A stretch of 64,000 bases of DNA, from contig OZ360219.1 in assembly GCA_977017645.1 (NCBI GenBank), forward strand, positions 254,634,001 to 254,698,000, in the 5' to 3' direction. The stretch's first letter is position 1, and every line of letters starts with the position of its first letter. The notes beneath the pieces were generated by a model, which was not told the DNA's origin, did not search any database, and saw nothing but the letters and a program-made list of their open reading frames with translations. This document shows positions 6,960 to 63,363 of the stretch, one piece after another. The position numbers and the translations under genes were made by a program. The stretch is from Torpedo marmorata. Taxonomy: Eukaryota.

Positions 6960-7638
6960 CAGGTGCCTAACCTTTTATCCGAAAACCTTGGGACTGGACA
7001 CTTTTTGGAATTCGGATTTTTTCGGATTATAGAATTATAGAGGCCGACGTCTCTGCTGCTGCCGGGAGGCCGACGTCCCCGCTGCTGCCGACCTGGGAGG
7101 CCGACGCCACTGGCCCCGTTGTGATTTGGAACGCTGACCTATCTCCTGACCTGCTGAGAGGCCGACGCCGTCTGTGATCCTGACCTGCCTGGAGGCCCAC
7201 GTTGGCTGTGCTCCTGACCTGCCGGGACGCTGATGCTGCATGAGCTCCAGACCTGCCGGGAGGCCGACGTCGGCCCTGCTCCTGCGTTGTGATTTGGAAT
7301 GCATGTGCAGATTTCCATCGCTTTCTCTCCCTCTTCAGTCTCTCTCCCTCCCCAGCGACGGCAATCTGCGCATGCATTCCAAATCGGAGGCGCTGGATAG
7401 AGGGGGGGGGGGGGTTGCAGTGGCGGCCGTACCTATATGTCATCTCCGCTTCTGCCGGTAGGCCGATGTCCCCGATGTTCCACTAACTACCGACGCGGAC
7501 TGATACAGGATTTTCAAGCGTGAGTTAAGTGTAGGTCGCGTCGGGTCATGTTTGGTGAGCACATGACATCCATGAAAAAAAGTTTGGTTTTCGAAGGTTT
7601 CCGGTTTTCGGAATTCCGGATTAAAGGTTAGGCACCTG
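6960..7638. mobile_element. Tc1/mariner (pogo/Tigger-like) MITE with internal GC-rich tandem motifs
   Basis: TIR CAGGTGCCTAACCTTT(T/A)ATCCG at both ends, TA duplication (6958-6959, 7639-7640), repeated GAGGCCGACG motifs at 7040-7275. Confidence 0.9.
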
Positions 7639-10629: not shown

Positions 10630-11852
10630 CAGGGGCACGCAACCTTTTTCCATGTGTGGGCCGGATGGTGTGTCAGTGGTTGAACGGTGGGCCACACTGA
10701 TGCTACCATAAATGAAATAAATACTGAAACACAATCATTATGTAATTGAAGTTTTCGATTGTCTCTGCTTGAAGTACGTAATGTACAATGTATGAACATA
10801 ACTGATGATAATTTATAAAAAAAAATCCACAGAAAAAGTTCAAGCAACGAGATCAACCGTATTCCTTCCAAAAACTACGATGATGCATTTCAGGTCAGGG
10901 ATAAATAAGAAATAGATAGATAGAACATTACAGCACAGTACAGGCCCTTCGGTCCTCGATGTTGTGCTGACCTATATATTCCTACCAAAAATAAAGTTCT
11001 AAACCCTTCCTACCTCGTAACCTTCTATTTTTCTTTCATCCATGTGCTTGTCGAAGAGTCCCTTAAATGCCTCTAATGTTTCAGCCTCCACCACCATCCC
11101 TGGTAAGGCATTCCAGGCACCCACAATTCTCTGTGTAAAAAACTTACCCCTGATGTCTCCCCTAAACTTCCCTCCCTTCACTTTGTACAGATGTCCTATC
11201 AGTGTAACAGCAGGCTGAAGACAACATTGGAGATCATGAGGGGTGGGAATGAACCCGGAGCGGGGTGCAGCAGTTACCCCCCAACCCTCCCCCCGCCCAC
11301 GGCCTCCGCCACAAGGTCCCCCGTTCCCTGGGGCAGAATCATCCAGACTGTCTCCCCTCCGCCCCCCGGCCGCGTCGGTAGCCAAACCAGCTGGGTACCT
11401 GAGGGTGGATGAATGCCCGCTCCTGTCCATGCACCATGGCCGCAGCCCGCCATCTCCATGCGGCCGGCAGATGCGGGACGACGGGTTACACGTCGGGGAG
11501 CGGGCGCCGTCTGCTAAACGGCTCGTGCCAAGCAATCGTCGCCACTCCCCACGTTAAAGGGCTCGTGCCAACCGACCCCGCCGTCCGCTAAACGGCTCAC
11601 GCCAAGCAATTGTCGCCACTCCCCACGTTAAAGGGCTCGCACCAACTGACCCCGCCGTCCACTAAACGGCTCGCACTGGGGAGCGGACGCCGCGCGTGAG
11701 GCGGCTCACGCTGGGAGAGGACGCCACACGTGAGGCGGCTCACACTGGGGAGTGGATGCCGCGCGTGAGGTGGCTCGCTCTGGGGTTGCGGGCCGGATAA
11801 ATTTGGATCGCGGGACGGATTTGGCCCGCGGGCTGTAGGTTGCCCACCCCTG
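10630..11852. mobile_element. Non-autonomous hAT (Charlie-like) element inserted in the CR1 endonuclease GDF motif
   Basis: TIRs CAGGGGCACGCAACCT / AGGTTGCCCACCCCTG; 8-bp TSD ATTTAAAA at 10622-10629 and 11853-11860; internal ~75-bp and ~35-bp tandem repeats at 11510-11790. Confidence 0.9.
10912..11196 (-). mobile_element. Short CR1 3' end inside the hAT element
   Basis: GHLYKVKGGKFRGDIRGKFFTQRIVGAWNALP; tail (TCTA)n; close match to 43346-43645. Confidence 0.85.
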
Positions 11853-12820: not shown

Positions 12821-13684
12821 CCTTGAAATATTTAAGATGTCAGGAATGGGAAGTGGTTCTCCGGGTGTCCTTCCATTAACAGACATTTTATATCTGAAGT
12901 GTAGCATTCTGACCATATTGAGCTGAAATTGCTGCTTAAATATTAACTTGAGGTTCTGATAAGGTGAGTGTTACATCTTTTTTACAACAGTGGACCCATC
13001 ACCTGCAGGGCAGCAAAGTAACCGAGGAAACAGGTATTTGATGCTAAGGAATGACTTTAAACCTGAGAATGAACAGGATAAGAAGAAATAAAAAAAATAA
13101 GCTGGCATTCACAAGATCAAACGTCTTCCAAGCACTCAATTCAGGATATAATCAAGGCAAATTACTATTTTTTGGAGGGTGGCAGACATGTCAATGGGAG
13201 CGTTCCTGAGGTTTTATCTTAGATTCAGGTGAAACATTAGTTGGCTGGGATTCTGAGGTATTTGAAAACCTGGCAGGTGAAGGTGGAGAAAATTGTTTTC
13301 CTCTACCACCAAGCAAAACTCAAACCTTTCCTGTGATCAGACCTCCCTGTTGTCAGACTCCTAATGGTCAGAATCACCTGTAAGCAGAGAGTCTTGGACA
13401 CAACTTATTCTGCAATCTCCAACTCCCCCCCCCCCACCACAATCGATCTCTATCCACAATCATTCCACTATCACGATGTTACCTCAAACCTCATTCAGTA
13501 GCATCAGCTAACAGCACAGAGAGATCATCAAACACTCTCCAGCAAAATTTTAAACTAGGTTTCTATTGCTTGATTGCATCATTTTACCCTCTAAACCAGC
13601 ATCATTAAACAATGTATTATGTTACATCTGCTGTGTGCACATGGGCTGCTCTGATCCCCAACACTACAAAAGTGAATAGACTTC

Positions 13685-14733
13685 AATGCCGGCGGGGTTG
13701 AAGCGAATGATGGGACGGAGTTGGATTTGTTCGGACGATCGGGCTGTGGTGAGCGCTTGATGCAGGCCCGGGCTCCATGAGATCTGGGGTGGGAACGGAG
13801 TGGTGTGTGGGAGCACATTGGAACAAATTGCCGGGAGTTGCTGAATCTGTGATATCAGGGTACCAAAATGGCAGCGCTGCCGGAGTCGCTGTAGCGGCAG
13901 CGCTGCCGCTGGTGCGGACCCGTGGGGAGAAAGGGAGCGGAGATGCAGTGCTCCCGTGGGTTCCAGCCGCCCAGTCGACTGCCGTCGGCTCTGCACGGGC
14001 TTTGAATGGCCCGTTGAGGGAGCCGACAGTGGTTTTATTTGAGATCCCGCAGCCGCGGGGTCTGTGCCCAAGATGGCAGCGCCAATTAATCAGCAGTAGC
14101 CACGAGGGGCTGCAGACTCTGGGGAAGCGAAGGACTGGAGCAGGGCACCAGAGGACGGAAAGATCAACCCCCCCTGTCTGAGAAGGAGAAGCGGAGGAGA
14201 CGACCCACGGGACGGTGACCACGGCGGCGGACCAGTGAGTGGCTCTGAGGCTGAAGGACCAGTGCATGCGGCGGGCTGCTGGCGACTTGAGGCGAGGAAC
14301 CTGCGGAGGCTGTGGGCTGCTGGAGATTGCTGTTGGGAGACTTGCGCCGGGCTGCGGACTACTGGAGACTGGCTCGAACTGGCTGGAGGAGTACCAGGTA
14401 TCGGAACCGGGATGCGAGGTGGTGCCGAGGGCACTGAAGGGTTCCTGACCGTGTCGGAGGTATGGATCTGGAGCTCGGGTTGCCGATGTTTTATACTGGA
14501 CTCAGTGTGGCTGCGGAAGCTGCGGAAGCGCTGGAGGTGAATCTACGGACACTCGGTGACTCTGGGGGGACTCTCTTTTGCTTCTCTTTCTCTGACTGTA
14601 AGGAATGTTAGAGGCGCTTAGGCAATTTCTGCTGGAGGCGAATCTGTCTGCCTTGCAGCAGGCAAAAAGAAATTTCATGTAATATGACACTGTTTTATTA
14701 CCATGACAATAAATTGAATGTTGAATCTTGAAT
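13685..14733 (+). mobile_element. GC-rich non-coding retroelement with Rex1-type 3' tail (copy 1)
   Basis: Homologous to 49125-49690 (+) and 57250-57984 (-); ends GACAATAAA plus (TTGAATC)n-like tail similar to the Rex1 end at 30450-30537; no RT motifs, no Pol III A/B boxes seen. Confidence 0.75.
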
Positions 14734-24387: not shown

Positions 24388-25370
24388 GGCCATTCCTCAG
24401 CACTGCCACAGTGATGGCCCAGGATCCTTCAGCACTGCCCCAGTGTTGGCCCCAGATCCCTCAAAACTACCCCAGTGTTGGCTCCAGATCCCTCAACTCT
24501 GCCCCAGTGTTGGTTCAGGCTGCCTCTCAGCACTACCCCAGTGTTGTTTCAGGCTGTCTCTCAGCACCGCCCCAGTGTTGGCTCAGGTCATCCCTCAGCA
24601 CTGCCCCAGTGTTGTTTCAGGCCATCCCTCAGTATTGCCCCAGCTACAAACTCTAGGTCTCTATACCCCCCTCCCCCACCTCTGCAACTGGATCCTTGAC
24701 TTTCTCATCGGAAGACCACAGTCAGTACGAATTGGAAACAACGTCTCCTCCTCACTGATTATCAACACAGGCGCACCCCAAGGATGCGTGCTTAGCCCAC
24801 TGCTCTATTTGTTATACACCCATGACTGTGTGGCCAGGCACAATTCCAATGCCATCTACAAGTTTGCCGATGACACCACAATTGTCGGCAGAATCACAAA
24901 CGGCAATGAGGAAGTGTACAGGAGGGAGATAGATCAGATCGTTGAATGGTGTAACGACAACAACCTTGCGCTCAACATCAGCAAATCCAAGGAGATGATT
25001 GTGGACTTCAGGAGGAAGTCAGGGGAACAACACCCAGTCCTCATCGAGGGCTCAGTAGTGGAGAGGGTCAAGAACTTCAAATTCCTGGGTATCAACATCT
25101 CCGAGGATCTGTCCTGGAGCCTCCACGTTGATGCAATTACAAAGAAGGCTCGCCAGAGGCTATACATTGTGAGGTGTCTGACGAGATTCGGTATGTCACC
25201 GAAGACTCTCGTAAACTTCTACAGGTGTACTGTGTTGGTTCAGGCCATCCCTCAGTACCGCCCCAGTGTTGACTCAGACCATCCCTCAGTACTGCCCCAG
25301 TGAAGGCTCAGGCCATCCCTCAAGTACTGATCAATTGTTGGCCCTAGTCTTCCCTCAGTGCTGCCTCAAT
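24388..25370. repeat. ~34-bp minisatellite (CCCTCAGCACTGCCCCAGTGTTGGCTCAGGCCAT), about 12 units, split by a Rex1 fragment
   Basis: CTCAG recurs at 24526, 24560, 24594, 24628 and again after 25233. Confidence 0.9.
24644..25232 (+). mobile_element. Internal Rex1 RT fragment with no tail
   Basis: Stop-free [45 protein letters not shown]. Confidence 0.9.
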
Positions 25371-28324: not shown

Positions 28325-29571
28325 GCCATTTATTGGTTTTATAATGTGGCCTTCAGCAGTGAATTTCAATGGTTCCATTACAACTAGAAGGATTTGTATA
28401 AATGAATTGGCATTATTGACAGTGACATGTGAATTTTGCCAGACTTTTCATTTGTTAAACCCATTAAATATCATCTAAAAGCAACTTATGAATTTGCCAA
28501 ATGTATAATGAATTGTTTTAAAATGTTCCAGTCTACTTTTCATTTTAGAAATGTAGACTGGCACTTGGTCTTTCCTAGACCAGCTCATGTTTCTTCCTGT
28601 TAAAGCCAGACATTCATTCTTGGGTGATTGGCTGATATGAAGATGTAGTCTGTCTGTCAATGGTGAAAGGTCAGGCTGCCTAATCTCAGCTGCCATAGGT
28701 TAACTTTGCTGCAATTAAAATTTGATCTAAAGCAGCTGTCATACTTAACCTTGCAGTAAACATATGAAAATCTCGGCCTGGAAAGACTCATACTGATATC
28801 ACAAGCAGCAATGTTAGCTTATTAATACAAATCACATTATTAACTGAAAGGTACCAGTGAAAGACAACACCAGAGATCCCACTATAAATAAAAAGGAGAG
28901 AAATGCTTCAGAGCATGCACTCTTTTACACTGATGAAATTGCATGGCTCAGGGTTACAATGAACAGTATTTGGGGTTTTGAAGCTCCAGGTAGGGGATGG
29001 CATAAATTGTTGTCTCTTTAATAAGTCTGCAGAATCCAGATATGTGCAACTGTTTTGAAACTGTTGCAAAAGAAATGTAAAAACTTTTTATTTATTCAAT
29101 CCCGAATTAAATAATAGTCCGGATGCTTCAGAAAGAAATAATAATACAAAAGTGAATGTCAAGACTAAGATTGATAGTCTCCAAAGAAATGAGTGTCAAG
29201 GGGGATGTTAAAAGAGGAGAAGGTGGTGGTGGGGTTTAAGGGCATAATTCTAAAGCAGTGAACAAAGGTAACTGAGAACTTGGCTGCTAATTATAGGCAA
29301 ATGGGATCTGTGGAGAGGTTGCAGCAACAGCAATGGAGAGGGGGAGAACACATAGGCTTTTGATAGGTATTTACAATTAAAATATTGGCATGCAAACAGC
29401 TTATTGAGCCACAGGTGCAGCCCTACACATGGGTCAGATCACCTGCTGCTAAGAGTGGATGAGCAGTGAGTGAAGTTGGCCTATTATTCACCTGTTAACA
29501 AGGCTTGGTTCTCATAAGTGCATTTGTGACACTGAAAGACAGAAAACGTAGAACTTCTAACACTATGAATA

Positions 29572-30545
29572 ACCTCTACTCACTTTACACCCACAACTGT
29601 GTGGCTCGGTACGACAATAACACCATTTACAAATTTGCCGATGATACCACGGTAGTAGGTTGAATAAAGAAAGGTGATGAGTCAGCACACAGGAGGGAGA
29701 TTGAAATCTTGGCTGAATGGTGTCACCAAAACTAAGGAGCTGATTGTTGACTTCAGATAGGGAAAGCCAGAGGTATACAATCCAGTGATCATTGGGGGAT
29801 CACAGGTGGAGAAGGTGAGGAAATTTAAGTTCTTGGGAGTCACTATCTCAGAGGATCTTTCCTGGACCCAACCCACTAATGACATTGTGAAGAAAGCACG
29901 TCAGAGCCTCTACTTCCTCAGGAGTTTGCAGAGGTTTGGTATGACACCTGAAACCCTGGCAAATTTCTACAGATGTGTGGTGGAAAGTGTGCTGACCGGC
30001 TGCATCACAGTCTGATATGGGGACACCAATGCCCCTGAGCGTAAAGCCCTCTAAAAGGTAGTGGACACAGCCCAGGACATCACAGGCAAAACCCTCCCCA
30101 CTAACGAGAACATCTACAGGGAACGCTGGTGTCAGAGAGCAGCAGCAATCATCAAGGATCCACGCCACCCAGCATACGCTCTATTCTCGCTACTGCCATC
30201 AGGAAAGAGGTATAGGTGCCACAAGACTCGCACCACCAGATTCAGGAACAGCTGCTACCCCTCCACCATCAGACTCCTCTACAAAAAACTTAATCAGGGA
30301 CTCATTTAAGGACTCATACCTGTTCACTTTATTGATTATTTTTCTTCTCTCTGTATTGCACAGTTTGTTTACATTCATTATCTATTTACAGTTCTTTATT
30401 TGTTTACATGTATACGCTGTGTACAGTTCTTTTTTGCACTACCAATAAGTGGTAATTCTGCCTCGCCCGCAGAAAAAAGAATCTTAGGGTTGTATGTGAT
30501 GTCATGTATGTACTCTGACAATAAATCTGAAATCTGAAAAAAAAA
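29572..30545 (+). mobile_element. 5'-truncated Rex1/Babar LINE
   Basis: KFADDTTVVG, KFKFLGVTISEDLSW, FSLLPSGKRYR; tail AATAAA plus (ATCTGAA)n. Confidence 0.9.
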
Positions 30546-49124: not shown

Positions 49125-49690
49125 AAGTTGGCGATGTTGCTGCAGCTGCTGTAACAGCGGCGCTGCCGCTGGTGCGGACCCAGGAGGAGCGGAGATGTGT
49201 CTTCCAACGCTCCTCCGTGGGGTCTTACTGCCCGGCTGTCCTGTCTGAAGGCCCTGTACAACAAGGCTGGCAGCGGTTTTACATCAAAGACCCACGGAGG
49301 TCTGTGCCCAAGATGGCGGTGGCCATGCTCGGAAGCCCAGACCTCGAGGATTGCAAATTCCAGGGGAGCACCAGACTGGCACAGGGAAACAGAGCGGGAG
49401 AACCTCACCCCCCCTCCCTACCCCAGCCCAGAAGGAGAAGGCTGGGGGATGACCCTACAGGGTAAGGGACCACAGTGGTGGACCAGTGCGTGGTTTGGCA
49501 GCTGAAGGATCCACACTAGGATGTTGGGAACCAAGTACTGGGATTGGGACTCTGAGTGTGCTAATAGTGAGCAGGGATCTCAAAGGGCCTTATGCACTAA
49601 CAGCTTCCTAATCGCTTTGGGGATTCAAAACCTGGGGTCAAGGAGGGTGGCGGATGCCTCGAGCACAGGTTCACCACTGGAACAGAGAGA
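49125..49690 (+). mobile_element. GC-rich non-coding retroelement, copy 2 (3' end not recognisable)
   Basis: CTGCCGCTGGTGCGGACCC and GTCTGTGCCCAAGATGGC shared with copy 1. Confidence 0.7.
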
Positions 49691-51056
49691 AGTCTGTGAG
49701 ACTACGAACGTTATGGAAGAGCAGGAGATAGCGGGATCAGAGGAGGTGGCGGGAACAGAGGAACATCATATGGCTTTTGTATTTTATCAAGTCTTCTCTT
49801 CTTGCACAAACAATCCACTAGTTCAAAGGACACACAGTTGATCACTTCCTCAGTTTCTATTCAAGTTACCATGTGAGTGGCTTTCAGAAGGTGTGAGGTA
49901 ATGACTCCTATTCCAACTTCAGCTGATCCAAAGAGAAGATCTTCTCCACCCCTGTTCCACCTCACACAAGTCTGCACATACTGTATAATGATGCCTCTCC
50001 TCTGCAGATTACAAATATTCATTGGGTTCAAAACTCCTCAAAAGATTCCACTTCTTCTAAGATGAAACAGACAACCTGCCAAGAGTACAGGCATCTAATG
50101 CTTACATAATCGTGACAGGCTTGACCAGTAATACTGTAACTGTTACATACCAAGTGAATAAGTAAAGAATGATGATGTATAATTACCTTTATAAAACTGA
50201 TAGGCATGCTGATTATTTCACTCGCTGATGTTGTGAGACAGATTCTGTTAAGTAATGAATTATAATTGTCATCTGGAATATTCATTAAAATGACAGACTT
50301 TAACTCTTCATGGAGCTGGAGGTTACCATCCTGCTGGTGATAGATATTAAGGCTGCTCATTATCGATATTACTTGGCCAGTGTTCAAAATCCCACTTTCC
50401 ACAGGGTGAAACATGGTTGGTTAAGTTTATTGCCTGTGCAGGCCTTACAATCGTAATCAAGGGTGAGTCAGCAGAAATTACTGCCCACTGTTGATTTTGC
50501 TATTTTGAAATAATGATGTAGTGGTAAGCAACACTGAAATTTCCTTCCTTTCAGCAGCAAGAAAGGAAGTTTAAAACCATTCTGTCTTGCAAAGTCTCTG
50601 GATTTGTGTTCATGCTTCAATAAAACTGTGTGCCGCTCTTATCCAAAGCTGTTATCAAAGTAGGTGTAAATATGAATAAATCCTGCAATTAATATTTATG
50701 AATCAGCATAATATTTATGAATCAGCAGAGCTCATTTGTCACATCAAGTCTTATCTCTCAATCTCCCACCCTAACCCCAGAACAAAGGACTGACATAGTC
50801 CTCACATTTTTCATCGTCTCTGGTCTTCTTCAAGAAAAATCTGGTGTTACTTTATTTTCCCCACATTTGCTTCTACTCTTAAACATTGATAGTGTTCCAC
50901 CCTCAACTTCTAACTTGGTGACTCAGTTCAACAAACACAGAGGAGCTGAAACATATTTACAACACTGCAGATTGATGTTGACGAGTGTTCGGTTCATAAA
51001 GTTTGATGGAGGAAAATACTTTGAAGATAGTATTAATGTTCATTGAATGTAGCATT

Positions 51057-51670
51057 TCACACTACCCACTGTGGATCATGGATAGTATTTTCCAGTGGTT
51101 CACACTGCCCACTGTGGATCATGGATAGTATTTTCCAGTGGTTCACACTGCCCACTGTGGATCAGGGTAGACCCTCCCCAGTTGTTCAGACTGCCCACTG
51201 TGGGTCAGTGTGGACCCTCTCCAGTGGTTCACACTGCCCACTGCAAATCAGGGTTGACCATCTCCAGTGGTTCACACTGCCCACTGTGGATCATGGGTAG
51301 TACTTTCCAGTGGTTCACACTGCCCACTGTGGGTCAGGGAATGTATTTACCAGTGGTTCACACTGCCCACTGTGGATCAGGGTGGACCCTCTCCCCAGTG
51401 GTTCACTGACTACTGTGGATCAGGGTTGACTGTCCCTCCAGTATTTCACACTGCCCACTGCAGATCAGATTTCACCCTCTCCAGTGGTTCACACTGCCCA
51501 CTGTGGATCAAGGTAGACCCTCCCCAGTTGTTCACACTGCCCACTGTGGATCAGTGTGGACCCTCTCCAGTGGTTCACACTGCCCACTGCAAATCAGGGT
51601 TGACCATCTCCAGTGGTTAACACTGCCCACTGTGGATCAGTGTGGACCCTCCCCAGTGTTTCACACTACA
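51057..51670. repeat. 43-bp minisatellite, about 14 units
   Basis: Core TCCAGTGGTTCACACTGCCCACTGTGGATC at 51091, 51134, 51177, 51220, 51263 and onward, each followed by a variable ~13-nt segment. Confidence 0.95.
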
Positions 51671-55535: not shown

Positions 55536-57249
55536 TAATAGGTTCTTTCCCCTGGCCTCTAATCTTATTTGAGGCTATGCTATATAAATGAATGAGTGTG
55601 AACCATTTTAAATCAGTTCATGTTGCTCAGTATGAAGTGGGAGACAGAAGTTTTTAATGATCTGTGATTCGATACCATATCAATTCTTTGCTTCACGGAA
55701 TCTGAATGGTCTTTTTGCTCATATTGTAACAAGAGAATGCACAACCAAAAAGAGGTTTCAATTGGTGTCAAATACAATTTGTGGATGTGATTCCATTGCA
55801 TTCAAAGAATCAAAGGACATTACAGCACAATTCAGGCCATTCATCCGATGTTGTGCTAACCTATGTCAACCTACTCCACAACAATCTAATCCTTCCCTAC
55901 TTCACACCCATAAAATCTCCCTTACAGCCATGTGCCTATCTAAGAGTATTTTAAATGTCCCTATTGTACCAGTCTCCACCCCCAGTAATGCATCCACTAT
56001 TCTCTGTGTAAAAAACTTACCTCTGACATCTCCCCTTTCCTCCATTAACCTTAAGCAGATGTCCTCTGGTCTTTATTATTTTTGCCCCAGGCAAAATATG
56101 CTGGCTGTCCACCCTGTCTATGCCTCTCATAATCTTATAAACCAGGAGTAAGTCACCTCTTGACCTTCGCCGCTCCAAATTGAAAAGCCCTAGCTTGGCC
56201 AACCTTGCTTCATGAGACATGTTCTCTAATCCAGGCAACATCCTCATAAATCTCCTCTGCACCCTCTCTGAAGCTTCAACATCCTTCCTATAATGAGGCG
56301 ACCAGAACTGCACACACTATTCCAAGTGAAGTCTTACCAGAATTTTATAGAGCTGCAGCATTACCTCAAGCCTCTTGAACTCAATCCCCTGACTAATGAA
56401 GGCCAGCACACCATACGCTTTCTGAACCAGTCTATCAATTTGTGCAGTAATCTTGAGGGATCAATGAACCTGGACCCAAGATCTCCCCGTTTCTCCACAT
56501 TGTTAAAAATCCTGCCATTAACCACAAACTCTGCCTTTAAGTTCGACCTTCTAAAATGCATCACCACACTTATCCAGATTGAACTCCATCTGCCACTTTT
56601 CCACCCAACACTGCATCCTGTCTACATCCTTTTATAACTGATGACAGTTTTCTACACTATCCACAACACCTCTAACCTTTGTGTCATCTATAAACTTACT
56701 TCTTCATCCAAGTCATTTATAAAAATCACAAACAGCAGGGGTCACAGAAAAGATCCTTGTGGATCTCCTCTGGTCACTGACCTCCTGGCAGAATATGCTC
56801 TATCACCCTCTGCCTTCTGCAGACAAGCCAATTCTGAATCCACGGAGCCAAGGTTCCATGGATCTCATGCCTCAATGAGACTGCCATGGGGGACCTTCTC
56901 AAATACCTTACTAAATTCTATGTACACACACCCACCACCCTACCTTCATTAATTTCTTTTGTCACCTCTCAAAGCCATGCAGACTTTAACTGAGAAGACT
57001 ATGCTTCTCTAAATTCTTATAAATCCTGTCCCTAAGAATCTTCTCCAATAGTTTGCCCATCACTGACATTAGACTCACTGGGCTATAATTCCCAGTATTT
57101 TCCCCATAACCTTTTGTAAACAAGGAGACTATATTTACCATTGTCCAATTCCCTGGTACCTCTAATGAGGTCATTGCTAATGGCCCAGAAATCTCTTTGC
57201 TTGCTTTCTATAGTAACCTGGGGTCTATCTCATCCTGCCCTGGGGACTT

Positions 57250-57984
57250 CACGATTCAAACAGTCACCATTAGCGTCGCCTGGTGCACCTTACAATAAGA
57301 GAGAAAGAGAAGCAAAAGAGAGTCCCTTCAGTGTCCGTGGATTCACCTCCAGCGCTTCCGCAACCTCTGCAGCTGCACAGACTCCAATTCAAACCATCGG
57401 CAACCCGATCTTCAGATCTAAACCTCCAAAACGATCAGGAAAGCATCAGTGCCTGAGGCCCTTTGGGAGCCCTTCTTGCCCTCAGCACCCTCTCAAATCC
57501 TGGCTCTGATACTTGGTTCCCATGAACCAGTCTCCAGCAGCTTGTGCGGATCCTCCAACTGCAAGTTGCCCGCAGCCTGTGTGGATCTCTCAGCCACTGA
57601 GCCGCTGCCGTGGTCACCTTCCCTGTTGGGTCATCTCCTCTGCTTCTCCTTCTCAATGAGGGGGGAGGTGGGGGTTGGGGGTTCTTCCTGTTTTCTGGTT
57701 CCCTGCAGCAGTCTGCTGCTCCCTGGAGTCTGCAACCTCTTGTAGCCGCTGCCAAGCACAGGCACTGCCAACTTGGGCACAGACCTCCGCGGTTGTAAGA
57801 TTCTATTTACAAACACCATAGATTCCTTTAACAGGCCGTTTAAAGGCTGTATGGAGCCGTCGGCATTAGGATCGGGCGGTTGAACCCTTTCGAGCAGCAC
57901 TGTGTCTCCGATCTCTGCTCTCCCGGGTCTGCACCAGCGACAGCACAGCCATTACAGCAGCTCCAGCAGCGCCGCCATTATTCC
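57250..57984 (-). mobile_element. GC-rich non-coding retroelement, copy 3, with TSD
   Basis: 6-bp TSD GGACTT at 57244-57249 and 57985-57990; starts GGAATAATGGCGGCG, ends TTTGAATCGTG; homologous to ~13865-14610. Confidence 0.82.
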
Positions 57985-59364
57985 GGACTTATCTATCCAA
58001 ATCTTTTTTAACCTCAACATACTCCAGCGTATTTGCCTGTTCTACACCCACCTTAGATTCACTAAGCTCCCGCTCCCTGCTAAACAGTGAAGGAAAGTAT
58101 CTATTTAGGATGTCACCTATCTCTTTTGCCTCTAGACACGTTCCCCACTTTATCACTCAGCAGCCCTACTCTCACTCTAGTCATCCTTCTGATCTTCATG
58201 GACATTTAGAACATCTTAGGGTTTTCTTTAATCCCACTCGCAAGATCTTCTCATGTCCCCTTCTAGCTCTCCTAAGTCTTTTCTTCAGTTTGTACCTGGC
58301 TACCATATAATTCTCATGAGCCCTTCCTGAAGTTTGCTTCCTAGACCTTATGTATGCTTCCTTCTTCCTCTTGACTCACTGTCCCACCTTTCTTGTCCTT
58401 TAGTCTCCTATCTTTTCCCTGTATCAGTGGGACAAGCCTATCCAGGACCCAACACGTTTGGTCCCTAACCATCCTCCACATTACAACTGTGCATTTCCCT
58501 GGGAACATCTGTTCCCAATTGACTCTTCTGTTCCTGCCTTATCCTATGGTAATTAGCCCTTTCCCAATTAAACACTTTCCCATTTTGTCTACTCCTATCT
58601 TTGTGTAAAGCTATGCTAAAGGTCAGGGAGTTGTGGTCACTGTCTCCAAAATGCTCACCCACCGAGATATCTGTCAGCTGATCAGCATTATTACCCAGTA
58701 CTCAATCCAGCAAGGCCTCTCCTCTAGTTGGCTTGTCCACATTCTGTGTCAGGGTTCCTTCTTGGACATATCTGACAAATTCTGCCAATCTGAACCTTTA
58801 CCCCTGAGCAGGAACCAGTCAAAATTGGGGAAGTAAAGTTTCACATGAAAACAACCCTGTTTTTTTTGCACCATTCCAAAATCTGCCTACTTATCTGCTT
58901 CTCGGTGGCCGGGTGGCTATTTCGGGGCCAATAGAATACTCCTAATAGAGTGATCACTCTTCCTGTTTCTGACTTCTACCCATAATAACTCAGTGGAAGG
59001 TCCCTCCAAAACATCCTCCTTTTCTGCTGCTGTGATACTACCCCTGTTCAGCATTGCCACTCCCCCCCTCTTTCTCCCCCTCCCTATCCCTTCTGAAACA
59101 TCTAAACCCCAGTCATGCTGTCAATCCTGACAGGCCAATCCATTCAGCCAGGTCTCTGTAATGCCACAACATCGTAATTCCATGAATTGATCCTTGTTTG
59201 AAGTCATCACCCTTATTCTTAATACTTCTCACATTAAAGTAAAAACATTTCAACCCATCCAACTGACTTCATCTATGCTCCGTCACTGATTGTCCTTCCT
59301 CACAGTCTCACTATACATTGCATTTATGTTTCCACCAACTGCTCCATTATCTGACCTCACACTG

Positions 59365-60890: not shown

Positions 60891-61992
60891 TATGATGGTG
60901 TTGATTTCACATGGGTGGATGATGGTCAGACGCATAAACAGACCTAATTCCGATGCCCCTATGGACAAAAGCTCTATTTTAATTTTTGTTTAGGACAGAT
61001 ATGACAAGGGTTATTTCAGCAGAGTGCAGAAGGGTTTCAGCTGTTTATGGCATGAGTGAACACCTTGAGAAGAGAACTAAATGTAAGAGCAAGTTCATTG
61101 AATGTAGCCTGAGGTTAGGATTCAGTATTAAGCCAGTATACAGGGGGTTTTGCATTGTACAGCATTTGAGGTATATTTGAGTATTACATGTTAATTCTAC
61201 AAAGAAGTAAAGGTATGTTATATTTTCCAGCACTAGAATGCTTTATGATCAGCACAAAACACTTAACCCACTAATGCAATAATAAAAATGCAATTCATAT
61301 TTTAATGACTAGAAGGGTTAAATAGTGTGAAGGAGTCAATAGGCTGCAGACAGCATCACCAAATATGCTATTTTGAAATGATCCATCATCTACAGGCAGC
61401 AAAACGAGAGTGCTGCTTGAGGAGATTGTTTAGTTGAATTTCGATTTACAACTCTTCATTTTTTTTCAGTTTTTCTGATCGAGCACATCTAAAAATAATG
61501 CCTTCAGGAGACTGTGCCACATATAAGCAGCAGATCTGTGCAGGCCAAACATGTGCATCTGTAGATGTTGCAAACTCTGGAGGAGCTTCCCTCATAATCT
61601 AAGGCTATAGTTCATAAAATACACCATAATTTTTTGCTGTTTGAGTAAATACAGTTTATTGTGGAAGAATATACACCTACACAGGTACTCTATGGATCTG
61701 TGTTCAGATCTCTTTGGACTAAGCATAAATTATTTTGATGATGAAATAAAAGGAATAATATCTAATGTTGCCAAAATTAGCAGGCAAGGGAAACTGTCAA
61801 AAGGACATGGATACATTTTGGAATGCATTTCAATAGAGATAGAAAGAAGAGTTTGAGAGTGGAAATAGTGATTTTTTTAAAAAGAGAAGAATAAAGAAGG
61901 ATCACCTCTCCCAGCAGATAAAACTAAGAAGACTGTTTAAATAACTCAAAAAAATCAAGAATACCACAAAAAGAGCTATTACTACTTTAAGA

Positions 61993-63363
61993 ATGGCTGG
62001 CAGAAAAACGAAAGAACAAAAAGCTAAAAAAACCATGGTTCAAACGACTTTATTACATGAAGAGAAAAGGCCTACCTTGGAGATGGAGCCTGGGACTGTC
62101 CTGCAGTTGAAGCCTGGTAAGCGACCTGGCAAACGCTCGTCTGAATCGGGAACGCCGACGCTACCTCCGCAGGGAGCTGCGGAAGATGGCGCCGGCGCCC
62201 GACTCAAAACTACAAAAAGATTGGAAGAACAAGCGCGCATGCGCAGAATTGCCGATTTGCAAATGCAATTATATGAGGCCAGTGTGACGTCAACGGAGGC
62301 TCCCCAGACTATACTACAGGCTGGGAAGCCAGCAACATCGTCGGAATCTGAAGGAGAGAAAGAAGATAGCCAGCTGGGAGAAGAAGATATTGAAGATTTT
62401 GATACATATGAAGGTGATATGCAGAGAAAATTAAGTACAATGCAAGAGAATATTTTACAGGCTATAGCAAAATTGGAAAGGAAAATGGATGCTAAGCTTA
62501 ATATGACTATAAGTAAAATACAAGATGAATTTATAGAAATAAAAAAGAATATGGGAAGACTGGAGAGTGCTGTAAATAAAGTGGATGAGAGAGTTAAAAG
62601 AATGGAAGAAGAAACTGAAAATAATAAGCATGAAGTTGAATATTGTAGAGATAGAGTGGATAAGATGGAAGATACCTTTACTGGATGGCAAAAGCAAAGA
62701 GATGAAATGATGTTGAAAATAGAACAGATGGAAAATCAAAGTCGCAGAAATAATGTGAAAATATTGGGAATACCTGAAAATTTTGAATCTATAGATACGG
62801 TTAAGTTTTTTCAAGACTGGCTGAAGCAGACTTTTGGATTTGACCAACCAATAGAGCTTGAACGTGCTCATAGGATTGGAAGGAGAGATCAGATAGATCG
62901 GAGACCACGTCCAATTTTGATGAAGTGTTTGAGATATCAAGACAGAGAAAGAATTATAAGATCAGCAATTCAATATGCACGTGATAATGGTGCTCCGATG
63001 CAAATTCAAGGGAATAGAATTCTCTTCTATCCTGATTTGAGCCCTATGTTGGTCAAACAACGTAAAGAGTTTAATCCTGCTAAGGCAAAGTTATGGGAGA
63101 AAGGCTATAAATTTTCGTTTAAATATCCGGCGACTTTGAGAATTCAAAATGGTGATGGTTCTATATTATTTATGGATCCTCGACAAGCTGAGTTACATGC
63201 AAATAATCTTCCGAATCTGAGAAGAGTCTATACTGTGAGTAACATTCAACAAGCGCAAGAAAGTCAAGTAAGAAGAGAGAATGAACTGCCGGGTTTGATA
63301 ACCGAAGAAGCTGCCCTGGTTCAGATTGAAGAAGAAAGTGAAAATTTAAGAGGAGTTAACTAA
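61993..63363 (+). CDS. L1 ORF1 protein (456 aa; coiled coil, RRM, CTD)
   Basis: ENQSRRNNVKILGIPE, IELERAHRIG, RPRPILMKCLRYQDRE, FYPDLS, KYPATLRI. Confidence 0.93.
   Translation: MAGRKTKEQKAKKTMVQTTLLHEEKRPTLEMEPGTVLQLKPGKRPGKRSSESGTPTLPPQGAAEDGAGARLKTTKRLEEQARMRRIADLQMQLYEASVTSTEAPQTILQAGKPATSSESEGEKEDSQLGEEDIEDFDTYEGDMQRKLSTMQENILQAIAKLERKMDAKLNMTISKIQDEFIEIKKNMGRLESAVNKVDERVKRMEEETENNKHEVEYCRDRVDKMEDTFTGWQKQRDEMMLKIEQMENQSRRNNVKILGIPENFESIDTVKFFQDWLKQTFGFDQPIELERAHRIGRRDQIDRRPRPILMKCLRYQDRERIIRSAIQYARDNGAPMQIQGNRILFYPDLSPMLVKQRKEFNPAKAKLWEKGYKFSFKYPATLRIQNGDGSILFMDPRQAELHANNLPNLRRVYTVSNIQQAQESQVRRENELPGLITEEAALVQIEEESENLRGVN

Follow-up and report, generated by a model that had tools for sequence, protein, structure and literature searches.

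What kind of element is the GC- and CpG-rich repeat that occurs three times in the window (the whole 64-kb stretch of Torpedo marmorata DNA analyzed here), what copies it, and where does its sequence come from? A first-pass annotation had taken it for a non-autonomous retroelement with YY1-like motifs at its head and a Rex1-type tail. Self-comparison and alignment bear out its claim of three diverged, collinear copies; the length of the family, given there as 0.7–1 kb, is corrected to 0.82–0.87 kb.

Copies in the window

Copy 1, on the forward strand, had been placed at positions 13685–14733. Its 3' end near 14733 holds, whereas its 5' start has to be moved to 13857–13865. Searching the genome with it gave 14,872 first-look candidates, the best 39 non-self matches of which are 91–93% alike and begin at query positions 168–209; the first ~170 bases of the claimed copy are therefore flanking DNA, and across 494 loci the stretch 13600–13860 has no match other than itself. 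In its corrected form (13857–14733), copy 1 is a full-length member of a young family, A, and 95% identical to the A consensus over 13865–14728. It opens with a 7-nt leader, from 13857 to the core start at 13865, that is also found in a subgroup of copies. The first YY1-like motif (13865–13874) marks the 5' end of the family, and a GC-rich hairpin is predicted directly behind this end (13870–13907; z of −3.1 for the first 104 nt), a comparable fold being predicted in families A, B, and D. All three families have a second YY1-like motif ~205 nt from the start of the element, in copy 1 at 14069–14078. Head and body (13865–14590) are non-coding and rich in GC and CpG (67.6% GC and a CpG o/e of 0.92 in the family A consensus). 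They are followed by a tail module related to a Rex1 3'UTR (14597–14713), in which two predicted hairpins precede AATAAA, and by a microsatellite tail of about three TTGAATC-type units (14714–14733). The AATAAA and microsatellite tail described earlier for copy 1 are confirmed, the former at 14708 and the latter, of TTGAATC type, ending at ~14733.

Copy 2 (49125–49754, forward strand) belongs to an old family, D, and is 75% identical to positions 4–681 of the 845-nt D consensus; its locus had been correctly recognized at 49125–49690 but runs on to ~49754, and the tail is missing. Copy 3 (57250–57984, reverse strand) is a family B member, 84% identical to the B consensus, with ~70 nt of the tail deleted. 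Their genome searches returned 4,639 candidates for copy 2 (best 67–76% alike) and 20,348 for copy 3 (best 76–80% alike). Two YY1-like motifs had been described as common to the copies: both are present in copy 1 (ATGGC cores at 13865 and 14070), while copies 2 and 3 keep one each, copy 3 the first and copy 2 the second, at 49310. The 6-bp target site duplication (TSD) claimed for copy 3, AAGTCC, is present at its junctions (57985–57990 and 57244–57249), inside a CR1-like stretch, but such a duplication is not the rule in the family.

The lack of protein motifs also stands: no Pfam family scored above cut-off in five frames over copy 1, and families A, B, and D have no conserved coding frame. 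A DUF5021 match over copy 1 (E 0.0028) was rejected, as it fell below the cut-off and lay mostly in the flank. Elsewhere in the window, a 472-aa open frame (61945–63363, with AAGATGGCG at 62183) has a sub-threshold AAA_13 match only and is possibly the ORF1 of another LINE. GC-rich minisatellites (periods 26–74 and 43) occupy 7040–7284, 11505–11785, 24395–25327, and 51056–51667, and the 34-bp array at 24395 falls inside an open frame that encodes Rex1-type RT domains.

Age layers, ends, and abundance of the family

Majority consensus sequences built from 30 loci each measure 865 nt for A, 818 nt for B, and 845 nt for D. Identity of the copies to their own consensus is 96.5% in A, 90.8% in B, and 83.7% in D, for loci chosen as best matches. 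Aligned with each other, A and B agree in 665 of 769 columns (86%), differ by indels of 1–2 nt, and have no frame in common. The layout is the same in all three families: a start at AARATGGCG, the second motif ~205–220 nt in, a pyrimidine stretch, and then the tail, the copies ending in ATGACAATAAA plus a short microsatellite with a 7-nt repeat. The second YY1-like motif is kept in 26 of 30 A copies, 22 of 30 B copies, and 12 of 30 D copies. The idea that the two YY1 units form an internal dimer was rejected for lack of significance: among 500 shuffles, 247 and 54 scored at least as high. The three window copies represent three age layers (A young, B, and D old) of one non-coding retroposon lineage. 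A defined 5' start, truncation at the 5' end, a tail of microsatellite repeats, and the lack of an ORF make this a non-autonomous non-LTR family, as had been proposed; alignments of copies showed neither LTR nor TIR ends.

A shared 5' start was indeed found: copies begin at AARATGGCG and are often 5'-truncated. Among 79 tail-anchored copies, 46 start within 30 nt of the YY1-like motif, 7 at 31–100 nt, and 26 more than 100 nt in. The bases preceding ATGG in 56 head-anchored copies are constrained (A at −3 in 33, A at −2 in 40, A or G at −1 in 49) and further upstream become close to random. A few subgroups carry leaders of 7–20 nt ahead of the motif, which we infer to derive from different source loci. 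Long TSDs, in turn, proved atypical: the two flanks of 94 full-length copies share words of at least 8 bp once (0.9 expected), of at least 7 bp 8 times (3.3 expected), and of at least 6 bp 15 times (11.3 expected). The flanks of dispersed copies are unrelated to one another. Many older family B copies (seven loci noted) have short deletions clustered at the tail hairpin, like copy 3. Two copies have the same 5' junction within a CR1-like repeat and different 3' flanks, which suggests recombination or conversion.

Genome-wide, exact matches number 2,954 for a 32-mer, 67,844 for the tail hairpin motif, and 26,395 for the head motif (0 in each reversed control). The first 100 tail-motif matches comprise 79 copies of the retroposon and 21 of a variant of a 5S rRNA-headed SINE, five of the latter having been checked and 16 assigned by motif alone. 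From the cross-recovery of head and tail motifs we estimate ~45,000 head-spanning and ~90,000 tail-bearing copies, or roughly 63 Mb; these figures are rough, being extrapolated from the first 7–17 Mb of one contig, with B and D undercounted. The estimated share of the 6.2-Gb genome is 1%. Contigs from three organisms cover the element. In one read set, which we guess to be RNA, depth is very high and C>T/G>A places are few, a pattern that says nothing about expression.

The tail module and Rex1

The LINEs bearing RT and PF09004 domains are presumably Rex1, and are so called here. From 1.17 Mb of loci we mined 98 distinct Rex1 3' ends and compared them with the tails of the element, leaving out AATAAA and the repeat. 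The proposal of a Rex1-type tail is supported: the last ~110 nt are closest to one Rex1 family among the 98 ends. For the tails of A, B, and the 5S-headed SINE alike, the eight best matches are of the type we call Rex1-beta, with top z values of 12.4 for A, 6.9 for the SINE, and 3.6, a weak score, for B. Rex1-beta is represented by 15,719 candidates in the genome and, in the window, by a 5'-truncated copy at 29560–30540 (forward strand). This copy is the closest tail relative found and no part of the element, and it represents a candidate mobilizing lineage. The search turned up no LINE whose tail is near-identical: the GAATCTT repeat of the element occurs in 0 of the 98 Rex1 ends, and none of 30, 30, and 79 tail-anchored loci (sets that overlap a little) is a LINE. 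Because the best tail matches are Rex1-beta, the mobilizer is likely a Rex1 of the beta kind, the exact partner not being among the ends sampled. Rex1-alpha, the most abundant Rex1 sampled, with a GACTT tail, was rejected as partner or parent, having no similarity at either end. It is found in the window at 1032–2430, and some copies keep open frames of ~960 aa. In seven loci, mostly on contig C62, Rex1-alpha sits inside a Rex1-beta-like copy with one and the same junction, a case of segmental or tandem amplification.

The 5S-headed SINE is young and short (~250 bp; copies 94–100% alike, e.g., at position 300883435 of contig C1) and accounts for about a fifth of the tail-motif matches. It has the last ~120 nt in common with family B, at 71–74% identity; the tail is a swappable module, because it also lies behind a 5S head. 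Folded singly, the tails of B, the SINE, and beta are each predicted to form a short hairpin and, past an A-rich linker, a long one, with AATAAA following; in copy 1 the first hairpin is predicted to fold differently. Fold z values are −2.1 for copy 1, −1.6 for B, −3.6 for the SINE, and −1.3 for beta. Ten passenger tails (A, B, and SINE) yield a consensus two-hairpin fold of −16.5 kcal/mol, in which eight of 20 pairs have a one-sided and one has a two-sided change. Folding the passenger tails jointly with three Rex1-beta rows fails (−0.07 kcal/mol).

Origin of head and body, and the proposed life cycle

The first-pass annotation had suggested that the element might combine a Rex1 5'UTR with a Rex1 3'UTR. 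The Rex1-related tail stands, and two of the three Rex1 5'UTRs recovered begin at the terminal motif; the 5'UTR part is not shown. We recovered full-length 5' ends for three families, out of about six Rex1 tail types seen. The alpha 5'UTR (~200 nt) is without the YY1-like motif; that of Rex1-beta (~280 nt; 30 loci) has the motif or a near variant at its start in 14 of the 19 copies that reach it, and a third one (~420 nt, two copies) also begins at a YY1-like motif. Compared by BLAST with these three 5'UTRs, the element body (~700 nt) has no similarity past the terminal motif. Across 1.45 Mb of masked loci, a profile search gave matches to the tail and no parent of the body, and tblastx of A, B, and D against the masked loci gave one low-complexity match. 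We also followed copies outward from the head: of the first 100 head-motif matches, 87 were examined, the other 13 lying in stretches covered by tail-anchored loci. Of these, 79 extend as far as the tail and eight stop short where unrelated DNA takes over; 0 of the 87 continue into an ORF. Pieces of Rex1 ORF lie within 400 nt upstream in 5 of 79 copies; as candidates for an autonomous partner they were rejected and read as neighbors or insertion targets.

Judged from these comparisons, the element has a Rex1-like promoter layout without a demonstrated parent. That it is a plain internal-deletion derivative, a 5'UTR joined to a 3'UTR, of an unsampled, rare, or extinct Rex1 is an unlikely account that nevertheless has the shared starting motif, the tail, and the sampling of only three of about six tail types in its favor. 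Against it, the Rex1 5'UTRs, of 200–420 nt and with AT-rich stretches, do not resemble the 700-nt body, the profile search yielded tail matches alone, and none of the 87 head-anchored copies leads to an ORF; a bipartite origin is for these reasons of dissimilarity and missing ORFs unproven. Head and body might instead be a cellular CpG-island promoter or first exon, captured and joined to a Rex1 tail through template switching. High GC and CpG content, two YY1-like sites, and a tail swappable enough to occur behind a 5S head would all agree with this, and promoter capture has been described in SVA (in the part of PMC4494074 cited here). We regard it as rather improbable, given that the best 40 matches, themselves filled by copies, include no host gene and that no coding frame is conserved; it fits as a possible origin within our best explanation, in which the element is a Rex1-mobilized passenger.

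The CpG-rich head had also invited the idea that the element spreads CpG-island promoters. In the 79-copy sample, transitions affect 1,018 of 8,967 CpG positions (11.4%) and 872 of 24,062 other C/G positions (3.6%), whereas transversions are equal (1.2% and 1.3%). Sequence decay of this kind, a threefold excess, is the mark of germline methylation, so most copies appear to have been methylated rather than to be CpG islands, and the CpG-rich consensus would reflect source elements. The idea is contradicted for the bulk of copies. A wide role of the copies as mobile, unmethylated CpG-island promoters, which the consensus CpG o/e of 0.85–0.92 in A and B and the estimated ~45,000 head-spanning copies might have suggested, is very unlikely against this transition excess with equal transversions, and our results give no support for a general role of this sort.

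As had been noted, there are no Pol III boxes, with neither an A-box nor a sense-strand B-box found, and Rfam searches of four loci gave no family near its gathering score. The element is no SINE as SINEBase defines it (<700 bp, with a tRNA, 7SL, or 5S head and an internal Pol III promoter; PMC3531059, in the part cited), as it has no such head and measures 818–865 nt. That the element is a Pol III SINE with a small-RNA head decayed past recognition is most improbable. In favor are the tail in common with the 5S-headed SINE and one single-mismatch B-box-like word at position 596 of family A; against it are the missing Rfam match and A-box, T4 runs inside family A at positions 169 and 713, a length beyond the 700-bp definition (PMC3531059, same part), and a 5' end fixed by another motif.

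The element is probably an ORF-less passenger, likely started by Pol II and YY1 and likely mobilized by Rex1. A Pol II/YY1 start is plausible by analogy with human L1, in which YY1 sets initiation (PMC11602158, in the part cited): YY1 would set the RNA start at the terminal motif, and we propose that full-length insertions would therefore regain a promoter, a step we hold to be fairly probable. On the copying side, Rex1 would prime reverse transcription from the tail repeats and in most cases leave no long TSDs, which the tail sequences make very likely. Tail recognition by Rex1 and target-primed reverse transcription are suggested because 3' stem-loops mark stringent LINE/SINE pairs (PMC3747384, in the part cited). 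The body would have come down through a passenger lineage of its own, in successive waves D, B, and A, most copies being methylated after insertion, which would leave few sources.

Several known systems share parts of this design, as far as the cited parts of the sources go. Like the RIME, NARTc, Bov-A, RTESINE1/2, and Vingi-1_EE derivatives (PMC5786205), the element has no ORF, no small-RNA head, and a LINE-type tail, and Pol II transcription, presumed for these bipartite derivatives, and mobilization in trans are proposed for it too; unlike them, it has a Rex1-type tail and a 700-nt body for which no parent 5'UTR was found. Kojima (2018, PMC5786205) lists ORF-less bipartite LINE derivatives for no clades other than RTE, Ingi, Vingi, and R2 and has 0 mentions of Rex1. 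Sadhu of Arabidopsis, which is likewise ~900 bp, non-coding, and LINE-mobilized, and SVA of primates, which is transcribed by Pol II as we propose for the element, are retroposons that are neither SINEs nor LINE derivatives (PMC4494074, PMC2848041). SVA is mobilized by L1 and Sadhu is without a recognizable promoter, whereas the element has a Rex1-related structured tail and a terminal YY1-like motif; it also has far more copies than Sadhu and no VNTR (PMC4494074). Some bird SINEs similarly place a GC-rich head of unknown origin before LINE-derived sequence but carry bipartite RTE parts instead of a Rex1-type tail (PMC7245038, PMC5786205). SINE2-5_NV, paired with Rex1-24_NV, is another passenger that uses a Rex1 tail; Rex1-tailed Pol III SINEs carry a tRNA or 5S head (PMC3747384), which the element lacks; the one in this genome measures ~250 bp. 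Human L1 also has a YY1 site near its 5' end that is proposed to fix the start, but is autonomous, with the site at nt 9–20, whereas the YY1-like motif of the element coincides with the terminus or is only a few bases away from it (PMC11602158). In the part of a Rex review used here (PMC6274825) no such Rex1 passenger appears, and the literature searched holds no description of a Rex1-dependent ORF-less one, although subscription papers, Repbase Reports, and supplements may hold one. The family is real and abundant and, as far as the literature searched goes, apparently undescribed.

An estimated 1% of the genome is made up of an element that standard SINE finders, keyed to A/B boxes, would miss. 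Only tentatively, and with some doubt, may it be seen as a vertebrate retroposon lineage, gene-less, Pol II-transcribed, and long-lived, that has taken only its tail from Rex1, has its own self-regenerating YY1 promoter, went through at least three waves to ~100,000 copies, and has a tail in common with Pol III SINEs; LINE passengers would then include a third kind, next to SINEs and internal-deletion derivatives, and the lineage might have supplied SINEs with tails. Kojima (2018; PMC5786205, in the part cited) left open why ORF-less Pol II passengers arise from only a few LINE clades and linked the question to transcription start. A Rex1-dependent case with ~100,000 copies in three layers that can be dated, and with a Pol III sister carrying the same tail, would make promoter type and tail recognition separable.
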